A DNA stretch of 21,213 nucleotides from a virus. This document shows positions 1-9,167 of the stretch, in pieces. Location: the UHGV virus genome UHGV-0220583. One strand, written 5' to 3'. Below the pieces are notes generated by a model, which was not told where the DNA came from, did not search any database, and saw nothing but the letters and a program-made list of their open reading frames with translations. Every line of letters begins with the position of its first letter. Positions within the stretch are counted from its first letter, which is position 1. The position numbers and the translations under genes are program-made.

Positions 1-788
1 ATCACCGCATTGACGCTTACAAATATGGCGAAAGACTGGCTGTTGGTGTATACGACACCGAGATTTCTAGATTTCATTCCGCATTTACCAAACAACCCTT
101 TCATATCTGAATAGTTTTGAGATACGGCCAAAGATGACGCAGCGACACCAGATTCCGTCGATGTTCTGGAATCAGATACGCGGATAATTCCCTTGTTTGT
201 TGGGGTCGCATCATTGGTCTTGCCTTGCAGCGCCTGTATGTCCGTATAGTTTTGCGCAACCGAGTTAGCTGTGGCCGCAATATCCTCTGCACCCGATACC
301 CGCGATGACGTAAGCCGGACTAAACCCACCTGTGTTGTTGAGGCCTCTTTAATACCAAGGTATGTGAGAATGTCAGCAATAGTGCTTTTACCAATAATGT
401 CGCGGCCGACAGAAGTTAAATCAGTCTGCGCTGCTGTATCATTTCCAGTGAAATACGGGAGTTTATTTTCACCGGTTGCCAGCCCTGCCAATGCCGTCAG
501 CGTGGCATCAAGTGCCTGGAAATCCTTCCCAAAAGCGGTTCCCATTTTGGAGATAAAGCCGTTCAGGTCACCATCATCAAGCACGTCCAGCCCACTTTTG
601 TTGGCTGTGTACTGCGCAAGCGCTGCCGCAATAAAGCTGGCCTGTCGAATGGCTTTGTTTACCTGCGCACTGGATGCTTTTCCTGCCATGAAACCAGAGA
701 GTAGAGCCGGAAGCGCTTCCCAGTCAGCCTGGGCCGTCACGTTAGCATTTGCCGCTGTCGCGAACGGTTTAAAGTTGTTTGTTGCCAT
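1..788 (-). CDS. tail fibre protein, N-terminal part (gene continues beyond window start)
   Basis: Hand translation of the minus strand from ATG at 788..786 (overlapping the TAA of the upstream gene as TAATG) is open to position 1: MATNNFKPFATAANANVTAQADWEALPALLSGFMAGKASSAQVNK... It is absent from the ORF track only because it has no stop in the window. Last gene of the baseplate cluster; contains short fibre-like motifs (ATPTNKGIIRVSDS, STESGVAASSLA). Confidence 0.6.
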   Translation of the reverse strand, partial: MATNNFKPFATAANANVTAQADWEALPALLSGFMAGKASSAQVNKAIRQASFIAAALAQYTANKSGLDVLDDGDLNGFISKMGTAFGKDFQALDATLTALAGLATGENKLPYFTGNDTAAQTDLTSVGRDIIGKSTIADILTYLGIKEASTTQVGLVRLTSSRVSGAEDIAATANSVAQNYTDIQALQGKTNDATPTNKGIIRVSDSRTSTESGVAASSLAVSQNYSDMKGLFGKCGMKSRNLGVVYTNSQSFAIFVSVNAV

Positions 789-2664: not shown

Positions 2665-3018
2665 TTATGCCTCGCTTGTTACAGTCGTCTGGCCGTAGAT
2701 TGTGTCAATGGAGGAAGTGAAAGTGACGCGGCGGCTGGTGCCGTCATAATTGGTATCGAAGGAAAGAATCGACAGAACGCCCGGCGTGTCCTGTATGCGT
2801 TCGCGTATAGCCAGGATGTAGACGTCTGATCGCTGTTTCCCAAGCACTGACTGAACATACGGCGTGCCTTCCGTCAGATCGAGAAACCACTGACCGCGCC
2901 AGAGCTCGAAACGGGTTTTTACGGCCTGGGCGACACATTCCGGACTGTCGATAAGGAAGGTGTCGTCACCTTGCCCGAAAGTGTAATCGCCGTCAGCATC
3001 TTCTCGTCGGTATCGCAT
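2665..3018 (-). CDS. baseplate wedge protein, gp25/GPW-like
   Basis: 117 aa ORF immediately downstream of the spike gene and abutting the J-like gene; size and position match T4 gp25 / P2 gpW / Mu gp46. Confidence 0.5.
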   Translation of the reverse strand: MRYRREDADGDYTFGQGDDTFLIDSPECVAQAVKTRFELWRGQWFLDLTEGTPYVQSVLGKQRSDVYILAIRERIQDTPGVLSILSFDTNYDGTSRRVTFTSSIDTIYGQTTVTSEA

Positions 3019-3758
3019 TATTGCGGCCCTCCAGTAGTTCCCCCGCCTGTCTGAACTCCGCCATGTTTATGCGTGGCGACACTTATACCTGAAGCTGTCA
3101 CATCATTCGTTACCGTAACCGGCCCAAGCATCGTCGCAGTACCACCACTTTCTCCCATTCCCTGAGACAGATTGCCATTAATCGTTACGTTGCCGTTCAG
3201 CGTGATAGTCGGGGATGTGATTGTCGTTCCACCTTCAGCCGTAGCCGTGAGCTGGCCCGGCGTTTTAATGGTGATGTTATGTCCTGCGGCGACCTCTACG
3301 AACGCCGCGCCATCATCGGTTCGCAGCTGCGCGGCGCTAGTACTGATACCGCTGATTTTCTGTGCTTGCGACTGCGGGCCAACGATGGCGAACGCATCAG
3401 ACAAGTCATGCTGGCGCGGGTCGACGGTCTCCTGAACGCCGCCGCTCTGCCACCAGAAATCTATGCATCGGTCAGCAAAGATCAGCAGGCACTCGTCGCC
3501 TTCTTTAACCGGAAAGGTCAGCGTGCAGCCGCCGCCGCGCGGGAAGATGACAGGAACATCCACCAGCGGTTTTAATTCGGTGGAGCCATCGCCAACAATA
3601 CCGCGAAGCGCCACCTCTACTGTGCAGGTAACAGTGTCAGGATCGAACGACTGAATGATGCCTGGCATCGCCACGCGCATCTGGGTAGACACCGAATCGG
3701 CAATGGCCTGCGCGGTCTGCTGCTCACCGCCGATCTGTGATTGAGTTGGAATTGGCAT
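3018..3758 (-). CDS. baseplate central spike protein (Mu gp45 / P2 gpV-like)
   Basis: ORF-track ORF 3018..3803 starts at TTG and reads through a terminator hairpin; the in-frame ATG at 3758 (MPIPTQSQIGGEQ...) with GGGG 5 nt upstream is the more plausible start. Gly/Thr-rich C-terminus ending ...SVATHKHGGVQTGGGTTGGPQ resembles the His-containing apex of spike proteins. Confidence 0.6.
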   Translation of the reverse strand: MPIPTQSQIGGEQQTAQAIADSVSTQMRVAMPGIIQSFDPDTVTCTVEVALRGIVGDGSTELKPLVDVPVIFPRGGGCTLTFPVKEGDECLLIFADRCIDFWWQSGGVQETVDPRQHDLSDAFAIVGPQSQAQKISGISTSAAQLRTDDGAAFVEVAAGHNITIKTPGQLTATAEGGTTITSPTITLNGNVTINGNLSQGMGESGGTATMLGPVTVTNDVTASGISVATHKHGGVQTGGGTTGGPQ

Positions 3759-3768
3759 AAAAACCCCA

Positions 3769-3794
3769 TAAAAAAACCCGCTCAGCGGCGGGTT
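3769..3794 (-). terminator. rho-independent terminator downstream of the lipoprotein gene
   Basis: Minus-strand RNA would read AACCCGC-CGCUGA-GCGGGUU followed by UUUUU (7-bp GC-rich stem, 6-nt loop, 7 U in a row including the stem base). Lies about 30 nt after the lipoprotein stop at 3824. Confidence 0.65.
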
Positions 3795-3823
3795 AGGATT
3801 CAATAAAATTTTTGAATAATATT

Positions 3824-4546
3824 TTATAACAACCCCATTTTTCTGGCTGCGTCAATGTTGTAAACATCACCATTACCACTACAAGGGGCGGCTACCGTAA
3901 CCATTTCCACATACCCCTTATTACCTTTCTGCTGGCATAAACTCGCGTGCATTTTCGCAAGCCTTGCTGCATGCTCAAAATCTATAAAACTATCAAACGA
4001 AGCTTCGCTTAAAGCTGTATATTTTGTTTTATCAGGAATGTTATGCGATTTTAATACACTGGAAAAATCATTCAAAGCTTTCGACAAGCTAGATATACAA
4101 AGGTTTTTATAATTTGCATTATCATATGCCGAAGCTCTTTTACATTCGTCAGCATAACCAGCAATGGCTATTTGGATGCGTCTCATCGTTAAATGATAGC
4201 CACCAACATTTACATAAACATTATCCATATTTTGAGAATTTGGATAGCGAGTAACAAAACCTAAATTGTTAATAGCTCGATTTAGTTCGTTTTCGGTTGA
4301 ATTTGCAGAATTAACATTTAACTTATCAACCTCTACTTCAGGGTGTGAAGCCTCAAACTTTTCAGCATCTTCTTTTTGTTTTTTCACTCTGTTTTTTTGA
4401 TTTTCATCAACTTGCTTTTCATATTCAACTTTTTCTCTCTCTTTTTGTGCCAGCCAGTCCCTTTGTGCGTTAACACCATTAGGGTCCCAACTGCATGAAG
4501 TCAAAAACACTGAGAAAAATATTGGAGTTATTGCAAGCATATTCAT
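3824..4546 (-). CDS. lipoprotein of unknown function, AT-rich moron
   Basis: ORF-track ORF 3824..4612 begins at TTG inside the upstream gene; the in-frame ATG at 4546 gives MNMLAITPIFFSVFLTSC with a lipobox (L-T-S-C). The gene is visibly AT-rich (roughly 35-40% GC by eye) against a GC-rich background, Lys/Glu/Asn-rich, and followed by its own terminator. Confidence 0.6.
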   Translation of the reverse strand: MNMLAITPIFFSVFLTSCSWDPNGVNAQRDWLAQKEREKVEYEKQVDENQKNRVKKQKEDAEKFEASHPEVEVDKLNVNSANSTENELNRAINNLGFVTRYPNSQNMDNVYVNVGGYHLTMRRIQIAIAGYADECKRASAYDNANYKNLCISSLSKALNDFSSVLKSHNIPDKTKYTALSEASFDSFIDFEHAARLAKMHASLCQQKGNKGYVEMVTVAAPCSGNGDVYNIDAARKMGLL

Positions 4547-4553
4547 CAGAAAT

Positions 4554-5618
4554 TCATCCTGCGGTTTTGTTAATGGACGCTCCTGATTGCAAATCACGCG
4601 CCCCTCTCGCAAAGCACATTAAATCCATGTACCACGCCTGACCTCTGGTGTCACCAGTATAATCGATAGCTTTGACGATATAAACGCCATCCGTCGCAAT
4701 GCTGGCAGCCTGTGACGTTGTGCCGGTCAGAACGCGGTTGCCGTTCTCTTCTGTTTCGGTGATACGCCCGGGCGACTGAGCGATTTCGCTATTGCCGAGC
4801 GCAGCGCGGTACACCGAAGCCTGATCGAGCTGGATAAGACCATTAATACGGATGTTTGGGTTTATCAGGCACCGCACGTTTACTCCGCCGCCCATCGTTT
4901 GTTGCGGCATACCGATCAGGCCAGTATCGGCATTCAACACAATGGCTTCGTGAATATATTTATCCTCCGGCACCATCTGGACCTGACCATCCACCAGCTG
5001 CCATGTCGCTTTGCACTGCGCAGCAATATTATCCATCACGTTACGGGTGGATGAATAAATCGCACGGCCACGAGGAAACACGGTATCAGGAAAGTCACCG
5101 GTAATGCCCTGCGTCACGCCGAACGCGTTGAAATCCTGCATAGTCGCCCGGTGCAGGTCCGCAACGGTATAACCAGCGGCAAGCGTGGTGATGGTAGTCG
5201 CGTAGAGGAACGCTTCGTGGTTACTGATGGCCTGAATCAGCACCCAGGAATCGGTGATGTTGTCCTTCCCGGTGACGGTGAAGCGAATATCACCGTCAAA
5301 TATCAGGCCGTAGTTCTGACCGTTCACCTGCCCTACCTGGTCTGGTGAAATCTCCCGGGCGACACCAACCTGGCTCGCATCAACATCCGGCGCAATACCG
5401 TCATACCCGGCAATGATGCGAATTTTTGCAAACTCCTGCCCCAGTATCTTGTTCGTGGTATCGGTCGAAAGGTTGTAAATTTTCACGTTCGCCACTCGCG
5501 GCCAGCGTGTATCTGCCCACTCGATCTGGAACGTGACCTTAAAATCAGACAGGGAAACGCCCTGCCAGTTCTGGTCCAACAGTTGCAGCTCAAAATGGCG
5601 CATCCAGTTAAGAGACAT
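4554..5618 (-). CDS. putative baseplate hub protein
   Basis: 354 aa ORF upstream of the spike gene and downstream of the tape measure and two small tail genes; assigned by position and size only. Confidence 0.4.
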   Translation of the reverse strand: MSLNWMRHFELQLLDQNWQGVSLSDFKVTFQIEWADTRWPRVANVKIYNLSTDTTNKILGQEFAKIRIIAGYDGIAPDVDASQVGVAREISPDQVGQVNGQNYGLIFDGDIRFTVTGKDNITDSWVLIQAISNHEAFLYATTITTLAAGYTVADLHRATMQDFNAFGVTQGITGDFPDTVFPRGRAIYSSTRNVMDNIAAQCKATWQLVDGQVQMVPEDKYIHEAIVLNADTGLIGMPQQTMGGGVNVRCLINPNIRINGLIQLDQASVYRAALGNSEIAQSPGRITETEENGNRVLTGTTSQAASIATDGVYIVKAIDYTGDTRGQAWYMDLMCFARGARDLQSGASINKTAG

Positions 5619-6549: not shown

Positions 6550-8564
6550 TATCTCGGTCCTGCGGGGAGTTGCTGGGTTAACTGTGAATTCACGCCCTTT
6601 TGACGGTCAACAGTCAAACGGGCAGCTTCGCGAGGATCGGAAACGCCGTGGATGTTAATGTTCGTTTCCTGCTGAATCACCGGGGCGCTGGTGGGCATAT
6701 TGCTCATTACTTTCGGAATGTAGTTGCGCGTTTCCTGCGGCATTAGCCCCATTCCATAGCGCTTAACATTCCCGATCCCCCAGTTATATGATGCCAGTGC
6801 TTTGCTAAGGTCTCCGCCGTTCTGCCGCAACAGCTGGCTGAGGTACTTAGCTGCGGCCTGAGCTGACTTTTGCGGGTCGAATACATCGTTTCCGCGAAGG
6901 CCCATGTCTCGCGCCGTGCCATCCATGAACTGGAACAGACCTTTAGCGCCAGCGCCTGAAACGGCGAACTGATTACCGCCAGATTCCGTTATGGCCACAC
7001 TGCGCAATAACCCCTCCGGAAGCCGGTAGAGCTGTTCCAGGTTGGTAAGCATCGGCTGCATCCATCCCAGCAGTTCAGAGCCTGCTTTGGTTGGCTGTGG
7101 CCGCTTAACTGACTGGCCGAGCTGTTCAGGCTCATCATCACCGAACCAGCCGCGCACCGTTCGGCCCACGCTGCGAGGATCGAATCCCCAGTGCTCTTTA
7201 ATCCAGTCGGCTGTACCGTTGGCGCTGTCTGTTACCATCGGCATCGCTGACGGATTTTCGCTGCCCTGATTTAGCAGCTGTTTGCCTATACTAGCGGCCT
7301 GCGCCCAGTTGCCATCTTTTATGGCATTCAGCAAATCAGCGATCATGTTCAGCATCTTGCCGAACTCACCCATTTGCGAAATGAAGTTGCTAAAATCCCA
7401 CTTTAGGGACCATGACTTGGGGTCAATACCGAGCAACTTAGCCAGCGCTTTTGTCAGGTCCGTAACAGTCTTTTTCAGGTCACCAATCATTTTGACGGCC
7501 TGATCAATTTCAGTCTTCCATTTCCCCCAGTCAATCAGGCTTTTGCCACCTTCTTTCCACGTCTGGTAATCATCCAAGAGCAGACCAAGTGCAATAATAA
7601 GCGTCGTTATCATGCCCAAGGGTGATGACATGAAAGCGGTATTTAGCAGCCGCCATGCAACCAACAGCCCACTGAACAATGCGATAAGCTGCTGCGTGGC
7701 TGGGTTCAGCTTTTTGAACCAGGCGATCACACCCTCAACAGCTTGCCCAGTTCGCCATAACACGCGGGTAATCGCGTCACCTGCCCAGAGAATTCCTTTG
7801 ATGATCTTCGTGATGACCGCTTCAATCTTCGGCCAGTTGTCGAGTATCTGCCTGCGGAAGTTATCAATACTGCCAGCAAGGCCACCAGCTAGGTTAGAGC
7901 CAATCTTGTCTTTCGCCTGTCCAAGCGTCATCGTCAGATTACGCATGGAGGTCATGAAAATATTGGACTGTTTAGCCGCTGACTCAGCATTAAAACCAAT
8001 ACGCTTTGCCGTCAACGCGTACTCAGAACTGAGCTGCCCCATCCCTCTGCGCATCGCCATCAGCGTGTTTTCATCGATGCCAAGCATCTGCGCGTATTGT
8101 TTCGCGCGGTAATACGGCATGTTGTTGAGCTTTTGCCCAACGCCAGTAAAGATGGCCGCAGTATCACGCATCTTTCCGCTGGCATCGCGGGTCTGTACGC
8201 CCAGACGGTTCAGGAACCCTTCCGCCCCCGGATTGCTACGCATGAAACCAGCCAACCCTTCAAGAGAGGACATGGCCGACTCGGCGCTGGCACCGGTTTG
8301 CGATGCGGCATAGCCCAGCGCTTTGATGCCCTGGACGCTGGCCCCCGTCCGCTGGGATGCCCAGTAAATTTTATCCAGACCATTCGCGATCTGGGTGGTA
8401 AATCCGACAATGCTAAGCGCTGAGCCTTTCACCACCGCGCCGACCTTCAGAACGTTCGCGGTAACGCCTTTCAGCACGGCTTCAAACTTATTAGCGCCAG
8501 CCTGATCGATATCGAATCCCAGCGAAACAAGGAAATCTTTAATCGTATCTGCGTTACCGCTCAT
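6549..8564 (-). CDS. tail tape measure protein with C-terminal lytic transglycosylase (SLT) domain
   Basis: 671 aa ORF after the sheath-tube-chaperone set. Start has GGAGA 7 nt upstream. Hydrophobic segments at roughly aa 290-330. Around aa 515-605 it carries family-1 lytic transglycosylase motifs: AITESGGN, GLFQF, SYNWG. Confidence 0.8.
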   Translation of the reverse strand: MSGNADTIKDFLVSLGFDIDQAGANKFEAVLKGVTANVLKVGAVVKGSALSIVGFTTQIANGLDKIYWASQRTGASVQGIKALGYAASQTGASAESAMSSLEGLAGFMRSNPGAEGFLNRLGVQTRDASGKMRDTAAIFTGVGQKLNNMPYYRAKQYAQMLGIDENTLMAMRRGMGQLSSEYALTAKRIGFNAESAAKQSNIFMTSMRNLTMTLGQAKDKIGSNLAGGLAGSIDNFRRQILDNWPKIEAVITKIIKGILWAGDAITRVLWRTGQAVEGVIAWFKKLNPATQQLIALFSGLLVAWRLLNTAFMSSPLGMITTLIIALGLLLDDYQTWKEGGKSLIDWGKWKTEIDQAVKMIGDLKKTVTDLTKALAKLLGIDPKSWSLKWDFSNFISQMGEFGKMLNMIADLLNAIKDGNWAQAASIGKQLLNQGSENPSAMPMVTDSANGTADWIKEHWGFDPRSVGRTVRGWFGDDEPEQLGQSVKRPQPTKAGSELLGWMQPMLTNLEQLYRLPEGLLRSVAITESGGNQFAVSGAGAKGLFQFMDGTARDMGLRGNDVFDPQKSAQAAAKYLSQLLRQNGGDLSKALASYNWGIGNVKRYGMGLMPQETRNYIPKVMSNMPTSAPVIQQETNINIHGVSDPREAARLTVDRQKGVNSQLTQQLPAGPR

Positions 8565-9167
8565 TGGCCGCTCTCCATTTATCTACCCGGGCGTCGTTAT
8601 CCTCGCGCATGTCGAGGTAGTCATTGAGAAGCGCGATACGGCAGAGGTCTACCGCACCGCTGTTAAGGTCTTTCTGGTCAATATGGAAGGCAAGCGCCGG
8701 ACGAAGAATAAAGTCTTCACCGCCCGGCAGGCTGTTGAAGGTTATTCCGCTGGCGGGGTGGGCGTCTCGCTGGTAGGGAGTCCTTGCAAAAAATTTCCCA
8801 GCGAGTCGGCGACCACCCGCGCCACCAGTTGCAGCATGGTCAACAGGTCGATATCGTCAAACGCCATTTCGCCATGCTGGCAGACCGGCACCCAGCCTTT
8901 CATGTGCTCGCGTGAAACAACGGAAAGGCAGGGGAACAGGATAGCGTCCACGTCGCCATCGCTCAGATCGGACACAGCATTGGCAATCTTTGGCAGGATG
9001 GTAGCCATCGCGCCTTCGGTGTCTTTGCTGCTGATCTTCTCCTGAACGCTCCGAAAGTCAGAAACCATCCCGGCCAGCACCGGCAACAGCTTGCGGGACA
9101 CCTTCAGCTGTTCGAAAACGCTGAGCTTTGCGGTGCGATATTTCACGCCTTTAATTTCGAATTCCAT
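8554..9167 (-). CDS. tail assembly chaperone, predicted -1 frameshifted long form (gpGT-like)
   Basis: The -1 frame relative to the 141 aa chaperone is open for about 60 codons from the slippery site through the entire chaperone-to-tape-measure gap, ending at TAA 8554..8556, 11 nt inside the tape measure gene. The +1 frame closes almost immediately. Confidence 0.5.
8742..9167 (-). CDS. tail assembly chaperone (short form)
   Basis: 141 aa acidic ORF between the tube and tape measure genes, the conserved chaperone position; contains the slippery site near its 3' end. Confidence 0.6.
   Translation of the reverse strand: MEFEIKGVKYRTAKLSVFEQLKVSRKLLPVLAGMVSDFRSVQEKISSKDTEGAMATILPKIANAVSDLSDGDVDAILFPCLSVVSREHMKGWVPVCQHGEMAFDDIDLLTMLQLVARVVADSLGNFLQGLPTSETPTPPAE
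8793..8799 (-). promoter_or_regulatory. slippery heptamer G GGA AAT, candidate -1 programmed frameshift site
   Basis: Minus-strand GGGAAAT, phased X XXY YYZ on the chaperone zero frame (CTG GGA AAT), 17 codons before the chaperone stop. Same class as lambda G-T GGGAAAG. Confidence 0.5.

Follow-up and report, generated by a model that had tools for sequence, protein, structure and literature searches.

A metagenomic phage contig ends inside a predicted short, mosaic tail fibre gene with a Din-family crossover-site homologue at its module junction

Sandmeier is said to have described, in 1994, a modular evolution of tail fibres around the crossover sites of DNA invertases. Invertible tail-fibre regions are known from P1 (C segment, Cin), Mu (G segment, Gin), e14 (Pin), p15B (Min) and the EC958 prophages Phi1, Phi2 and Phi4 (PMC4134206). 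The tail fibre locus at the left end of UHGV-0220583, a stretch of 21,213 nucleotides of viral DNA (hereafter the window), is like these systems in that the constant proximal part of the fibre continues in frame, across a 26-bp site, into an exchangeable C-terminus with its chaperone. As in P1/Mu-type regions, the conserved ...YLG codons span this site, and a serine invertase gene or its relic adjoins the cassette in relatives. The site resembles both P1 cixR (compared through record AF234173) and the 5' site of EC958 Phi2, and it is the only part of such a region that is visible in the window itself. Other properties set the locus apart. At a predicted 328 aa, the fibre is much shorter than P1 S (988 aa). 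Unlike P1/Mu-type switches, relatives with the same backbone have no second inverted cassette, and their invertase is usually a 65-aa helix-turn-helix (HTH) relic fused to the chaperone stop; judged by these gene arrangements, the switch in the same-backbone relatives appears to be frozen. Finally, cin of P1 is antiparallel to the fibre gene, whereas the invertase of the relatives runs in the direction of the fibre.

The closest relatives are P0002 (NCBI ACFT46_15850) and P0004, both from E. coli prophages, and the contig end L007, which are 92-99.8% identical over the whole in-window part of the fibre. Their operon has the same genes (spike, sheath-initiator, baseplate J, DUF2612, fibre and tail fibre assembly protein), and the few substitutions relative to the window fall mostly within residues 1-40; in contrast to the window, their 3' ends and flanks are known. 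More distantly, the fibre of Salmonella phage SEN34 occupies the same slot after DUF2612 and is 70% identical over residues 1-206, with a different distal part. The DUF2612-linked fibres of Klebsiella and Burkholderia phages are 55-69% identical over residues 1-65, and again their distal parts differ.

The gene occupies positions 1-788 on the minus strand. It starts with an ATG at 786-788 and runs to position 1 through 262 codons and two further nucleotides with no stop, giving residues 1-262 of a predicted total of approximately 328. Residues 1-188 match the profile of PHROG 11303 ("tail fiber protein", E 2.7e-83), and those of the 5495 fibre homologues that are named in their source are labelled tail fibre or phage tail protein. 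By translation, profile match and homologues, the identity of the cut gene as a tail fibre gene is confirmed, and the sequence-only reading was right that the gene is cut by the edge and lacks its C-terminal end: the frame is open to the end of the contig. The fibre gene is the distal end of a baseplate operon on the minus strand that comprises a gpV-like spike gene with an Apex motif (3018-3803), a sheath-initiator-like gene (2665-3018), a baseplate J gene (1465-2664), a DUF2612 (Phage_Wedge1) gene (788-1468; PF11041, E 3e-45) and then the fibre gene. The fibre ATG overlaps the TAA stop of the DUF2612 gene as TAATG, an arrangement by which the two genes are predicted to be translationally coupled. 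The GC profile shows a mild drop (0.435) at positions 1-200, which is not diagnostic.

Some further observations concern the neighbourhood of the gene. An antisense open reading frame (ORF) at 271-864 on the plus strand was taken as a by-product of the fibre coding strand. The program called the gpV-like spike ORF from a TTG start (261 aa), while its homologues in L008 and nine other loci are 246 aa in length; an ATG inside the ORF is probably where the gene really starts. Between the E217_gp41-like gene and the spike gene lies a minus-strand ORF (3824-4612; 262 aa from a TTG start, 257 aa in L008) with no match in Pfam or PHROG. In sibling phages this slot holds an opposite-strand DUF4236 gene, a Phd/Fic toxin-antitoxin pair or two small ORFs; this variation suggests a place for exchangeable cargo ("morons") within the baseplate operon.

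It is the end of the source metagenome contig, at window position 1, that cuts the fibre gene. Taken as its reverse complement, ENA metagenome contig ERZ27298366:k119_2568 (L008; 21,773 bp) contains the window: 11468 of 11468 compared bases are identical, and the last base of L008 is window position 1. Statements about the left flank must therefore come from relatives. A protein look-up placed the exact DUF2612 protein on 23 contigs, L008 among them. Of the ten listed (L004-L013), nine end no more than 1.7 kb downstream of this wedge gene, seven of these nine inside the fibre ORF. The distal fibre part is present in two prophages of one genome in two cases (L017 with L023, and L024 with L026), and the distal cassette matches at five places in E. 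coli EcPF16. Most likely, the contig broke because the cassette is a repeat, present in many copies and variants, on which short-read assemblies fall apart. An exact 50-mer of the window had no match in GTDB representative genomes, and in IMG/VR only a relative, L003 (IMG genome 643348548), was matched. In L009 and L011 (8072-10004), baseplate J is truncated (177-aa ORF) and the upstream DNA is a lambdoid early region (CII, T5orf172, ERF, Kil/CIII); both look like rearranged or defective prophages in which the same wedge and fibre genes persist.

How far the fibre would extend past the contig end can be predicted from its homologues. Database proteins that cover all 262 residues at 73% identity or more are 283-373 aa in length, and the three closest full-length homologues (P0002, P0003 and P0004, with 95%, 93% and 92% identity, respectively) are each 328 aa. 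In alignment A1, all proteins that share the last in-window residues (...SFAIFVSVNAV) run exactly 66 residues more and end in ...VTWxEVDKK. The contig end L007 (NCBI assembly GCA_025324925.1) agrees with the window at 99.8% over 1500 nt (three nucleotides differ, two of which are amino-acid changes) and reaches 305 nt past the window edge. Its frame continues for 66 codons beyond the edge to a TAA, giving 328 aa, and is followed through an ATGA overlap by the assembly protein gene, whose opening 36 codons L007 includes. Where the window ends with two bases left over (AT), L007 has an ATG codon, which fits. The fibre of the source is thus predicted to be short, approximately 328 aa, with about 80% of the protein in the window and 66 codons (198 nt) missing. 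A stop codon close beyond the edge that yields a short protein was the result named beforehand as speaking against a long fibre, and essentially this is what the relatives predict.

The conserved proximal module (baseplate-side, "Sc-like") covers residues 1-144 (357-788, minus strand), as delimited by megablast against E. coli genomes and by identity with L004 and L006. Among 5,426 complete E. coli genomes, the region from approximately 354 to 1500 is present in 149, never together with positions 1-353; the distal 360 nt are found in only nine of the complete genomes, often on other phage backbones. Sliding comparison of L004 and L006 with the window shows 76-100% identity per 50-nt bin up to approximately nt 450 of the gene and about 25% from there on. 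From this collapse of identity, the junction is placed at residues ~142-148 (...DILTYLG/IKEAST...). Residues 1-144 travel with the DUF2612 and baseplate J genes and, by analogy with general fibre architecture, may attach the fibre to the baseplate. Mosaicism extends into this proximal module: alignment A1 shows an alternative block at residues ~60-145 in P0012, P0018 and P0020.

At this junction lies a 26-bp homologue of the Din-family (Cin/Gin/Pin) crossover sites, TTCTCACATACC TT GGTATTAAAGAG (345-370, minus strand, with the central TT at 357-358). The codons across it read T-Y-L-G/I-K-E, a module junction of the Sc/Sv type, and the break in DNA homology with E. coli genomes, at nt 354, falls within it. 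By tblastn, fibre residues 108-152 match the S protein of phage P1 across the annotated cixR (L028 5101-5120, crossover 5110/5111), which maps to fibre residues ~141-148 with the crossover at ~145. Read from 370 to 345, the site aligns with P1 cixR (TTATCCAATACC-TT-GGTTTAAGAGAA); it also aligns with and resembles the Phi2_5prime site of EC958, given as TCCTCAATTACC-TT-GGTTTAGGAGAA in Table 3 of PMC4134206. Agreement extends over the left half-site and the central ACC-TT-GGT core; the right half-site, GGTATTAAAGAG, and the published consensus differ at about four of 12 positions, and the homologue may be a relic that no longer works as a site. A degenerate 19-nt pattern of the site has one match in the window against 0.02 expected, which serves as a sanity check only, the pattern having been written after the site was seen; with up to two mismatches, no second match was found elsewhere in the window.

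Around the cassette in L004, L006, L018, L021 and L024, a search for inverted repeats returned only short, chance-like pairs (71-94% complementary). Long inverted repeats do not mark these switches, whose 26-bp sites were found by homology to P1 cixR. One candidate site, TCGAAACGAACC TT TGAAATATTTTT, in the 171-nt spacer upstream of the intact invertase of L021, agrees at about six of 12 positions in the left half and has no GGTTT in the right half; it was rejected as too weak.

Residues 145-262, approximately 45% of the in-window residues, belong to the exchangeable distal cassette. The fragment in the window had been described as only the baseplate-attachment N-terminus of ~260 residues, with the variable receptor-binding C-terminus entirely to the left. 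Instead, the conserved module ends at residue ~144 (nt ~357), the variable cassette starts at ~145 and occupies the remainder up to residue 262, and only 66 residues are missing. The cassette begins with two PF03406-type tail fibre repeats on the minus strand: repeat 1 at residues ~153-185 (234-332; GLVRLTSSRVSGAEDIAATANSVAQNY), located by Pfam on full-length P0002 and by alignment A1, and repeat 2 at residues 197-226 (111-200; TNKGIIRVSDSRTSTESGVAASSLAVSQNY). PF03406 scores 20.4 bits on the in-window fragment (residues 197-226), just below the cutoff of 22, and 29.9 bits in two stretches on full-length P0002, which is 95% identical. A sequence search of the PDB yielded no more than a marginal hit on structure 5yvq, tail fibre S of Mu (residues 143-199, E 0.034). 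The copy number of the repeat varies in alignment A1, where P0001, P0005, P0012, P0018 and P0020 are compared with the window, with two copies in the 328-aa fibres and three, through a 45-residue insertion, in those of 337-373 aa.

The repeats are followed by a C-terminal jelly-roll tip of ~100 residues, as predicted by an AF2 model of P0002; the first ~35 tip residues, with three of nine predicted strands, are encoded in the window (1-107, minus strand). The model, built from a 15-sequence alignment, shows a nine-strand beta-sandwich at ~237-326, with block pLDDT values of 63-82 for residues 240-328. Its N-terminal ~240 residues are unusable (pLDDT below 50; the model, poor outside 240-328, has a mean pLDDT of 47), as expected because a trimeric fibre was modelled as a monomer. 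In a Foldseek search of BFVD, the tip matches phage tail fibre C-termini with E values down to 4e-9, with a "Complement C1q-like protein" among the matches; one match has an rmsd of 2.4 Å over 90 residues at 31% identity. The predicted tip may also resemble C1q/TNF-like jelly-roll heads in the PDB, where matches to the heads of Cbln1/4, adiponectin and APRIL are weak (E 1e-3 to 6e-3). No Pfam family covers the tip domain on full-length P0002. By analogy with general fibre architecture, the tip is a putative receptor-binding head. The same distal cassette is found on YmfQ/gp46-type baseplates (L015), in a 505-aa P2-like fibre (L018) and on a variant DUF2612 backbone (L003/L016); on these different fibre N-termini and baseplates (P2-like, Mu-like/YmfQ-type), it is always joined in frame at the site.

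Seventeen loci with the same tip domain were collected, of which 15 are readable past the fibre stop (L026 and L027 end inside the fibre gene). In all 15, the fibre gene is directly followed by a Caudo_TAP gene (hereafter TAP; 121-124 aa; PF02413, E 1.4e-18; PHROG 188, "tail fiber assembly protein"), which overlaps the fibre stop by 4 nt where the DNA was read (ATGA in L001, L007 and L021). The earlier proposal of a tfa-like chaperone immediately to the left is well supported by these 15 relatives and by the 36 TAP codons visible in L007. Beyond TAP, 13 independent cassette loci are informative, with L003, L016 and L025 counted as one. In seven of the 13 (L001, L002, L003/L016/L025, L015, L017, L020 and L022), a serine invertase survives as residues 123-187 alone (HTH_7, E 8e-13), and its fusion to the TAP stop falls at the same nucleotide in each (...GGAACTTTAG followed directly by CTGGTTTGGCTATTGCC...). 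The remnant is 98-100% identical among these seven loci, which lie on different backbones and at different integration sites (argW/intS, dusA); this near-identity points to a single ancestral deletion that spread with the cassette. This 65-residue HTH_7 remnant (9346-9540 in L001) is labelled a partial HTH pseudogene by RefSeq. L001 and L002, which share the backbone of the window, have an integrase and bacterial flank 0.4-0.7 kb after TAP.

In four of the 13 loci (L014, L021, L023 and L024), the invertase is intact, or apparently so, and begins 171 nt after TAP, leaving no room for a second cassette. L019 has neither invertase nor remnant; in this locus (6709-9037), TAP is followed by an opposite-strand gene for a 354-aa multi-pass membrane protein, acyltransferase-like by eye, and an IS5-like transposase. 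The remaining locus, L018 (5612-7877), from a P2-like IMG/VR phage with a 505-aa fibre, carries a complete-looking invertible switch. Its junction site, TTCTTGCATACC-TT-GGTATTAAAGAC, is followed by the cassette and TAP, then by an inverted collar-type C-terminus (PHROG 523, E 8e-69) that lacks its own chaperone, an inverted site (TTTTCATAAACG-TT-GGTTTGGGGGAA) whose last 20 nt equal the EC958 Phi2 3' site (PMC4134206), and a divergent intact invertase of 199 aa. Simulated inversion between the two central TT dinucleotides produces an in-frame collar-type fibre of 419 aa. A further contig, L006 (11426-12183, minus strand), has a proximal module 99% identical to that of the window and a gp53-like distal part, followed in inverted orientation by a TAP' of 141 aa and an alternative C-terminus, also gp53-like; the contig ends before any invertase, and its arrangement equals the classical Sc-[Sv ... 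U'-Sv'] layout. A second inverted site with an alternative cassette is thus absent from L001, L002, L014 and L021, present in L018 and, by gene arrangement, present in L006.

These data bear unequally on other readings of the locus. If the window held only the ~260-aa baseplate-attachment N-terminus of a long fibre, then the variable region, the chaperone and the switch would all have to be sought left of it. In favour of this are the open frame at position 1, the similarity of residues 89-163 to inner parts of long fibres (phrog_2631, profile length 644, and phrog_454, profile length 1376) and P1 S, which shares the junction region and is a long fibre whose invertible segment measures 4.2 kb. 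However, no homologue that shares residues 146-262 exceeds 373 aa on this backbone, L007 stops after 66 more codons, and the variable part (from ~145) and the tip fold (from ~237) both begin within the window, so that a long fibre is already largely refuted and retains barely any probability. A decayed fibre gene or pseudogene, belonging to a defective prophage and truncated or disrupted just beyond the window, is very improbable: all 262 codons are intact, the head-tail gene set is uninterrupted across the whole 21-kb window, and L007 has an intact 328-aa frame. These points stand against RefSeq entries that call homologous fibres in E2348/69 and EcPF16 pseudogenes "missing C-terminus", and against L009 and L011, which are rearranged prophage remnants with the same genes.

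An invertible switch immediately to the left had also been proposed, and here the outcome is divided: the lead is a sensible one for a cassette of the Cin/Gin/Pin kind, and invertase genes are linked to the cassette in relatives, but the crossover-site homologue lies inside the window (345-370), and the switch has decayed on the same backbone. A functional Din-type host-range switch would have Sv and TAP flipping from 357/358 against an inverted C-terminus beside an intact invertase, as in L018, and mixed orientations in the population could have contributed to the assembly break, inversions being known to split assemblies (PMC4134206). In its favour are the cix-like site in frame at the junction, the complete arrangement of L018 with the same cassette (inverted Sv', 20-nt identity to Phi2_3prime, 199-aa invertase and in-frame inversion), the inverted TAP' and Sv' of L006 beside a 99% identical proximal module, and the intact invertases after the cassette in L014, L021, L023 and L024. 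The relatives on the backbone of the window itself tell against it, L001 and L002 having an invertase remnant and an integrase, and L014 and L021 an invertase 171 nt after TAP with no space for a second cassette. These loci show no convincing inverted repeats, the contig breaks ~350 nt past the site rather than at it, and the Sv-side half-site is degenerate. We therefore regard a working switch in the source phage as possible but unlikely.

The explanation that we favour, and hold to be very probably correct as a whole, is that positions 1-788 encode the N-terminal 80% of a tail fibre that is short, mosaic and of trimeric type, and that carries an exchangeable cassette; its owner would be a temperate phage or prophage with a contractile tail, a PhiTE/E217/SEN34-like tail module and Escherichia/Citrobacter-type hosts. 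In this fibre, residues 1-144 would form the conserved module that docks on the baseplate, followed by the two PF03406 shaft repeats and by a C-terminal jelly-roll tip of ~100 residues as the putative receptor-binding head. The repeats, the tip and the downstream Caudo_TAP assembly chaperone (122 aa) would constitute one exchangeable cassette, joined to the proximal module at the Cin/Gin/Pin-type crossover-site homologue of 26 bp (345-370). The content of the left flank of the source is extrapolated from relatives: 198 nt and the fibre stop would come first, then the overlapping TAP gene (369 nt; expected to read ATGATAACAATGATGAAA... after the fibre TAA). After TAP, the fixed C-terminal remnant of the invertase is the most probable content, with about an even chance; an intact invertase without a second cassette is a distinctly less probable alternative. 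An integrase and the prophage end would follow within roughly 1-2.5 kb.

Several practical points follow from this arrangement. When a contig ends inside a fibre gene, a long protein should not be presumed; here, the whole proximal module and ~80% of the protein are present. The fibre/chaperone cassette is a recurrent breakpoint of short-read assembly, common to several prophages, and near-identical phage contigs end there. The boundary of the cassette that would govern host range lies in the window, at 345-370, and offers a cut point for host-range engineering or comparison. There is a small chance that the source keeps a live Cin/Gin-type switch starting at 357/358, that the tip represents an uncharacterised C1q-like class moving between phages, or both. 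With a live switch, the orientation of the segment would determine which tip the phage displays, the C1q-like one or an unseen alternative; in the other case, the Pfam-less tip of ~100 residues would be a class of receptor-binding head, carried on a cassette that moves between P2-like, Mu-like and PhiTE/E217-like phages. The fibre and its modular, invertase-linked evolution are already known, with relatives of 92-99.8% identity in public assemblies. The locus has little significance beyond its correct annotation, and it fits the long-established modular, invertase-associated evolution of phage tail fibres.
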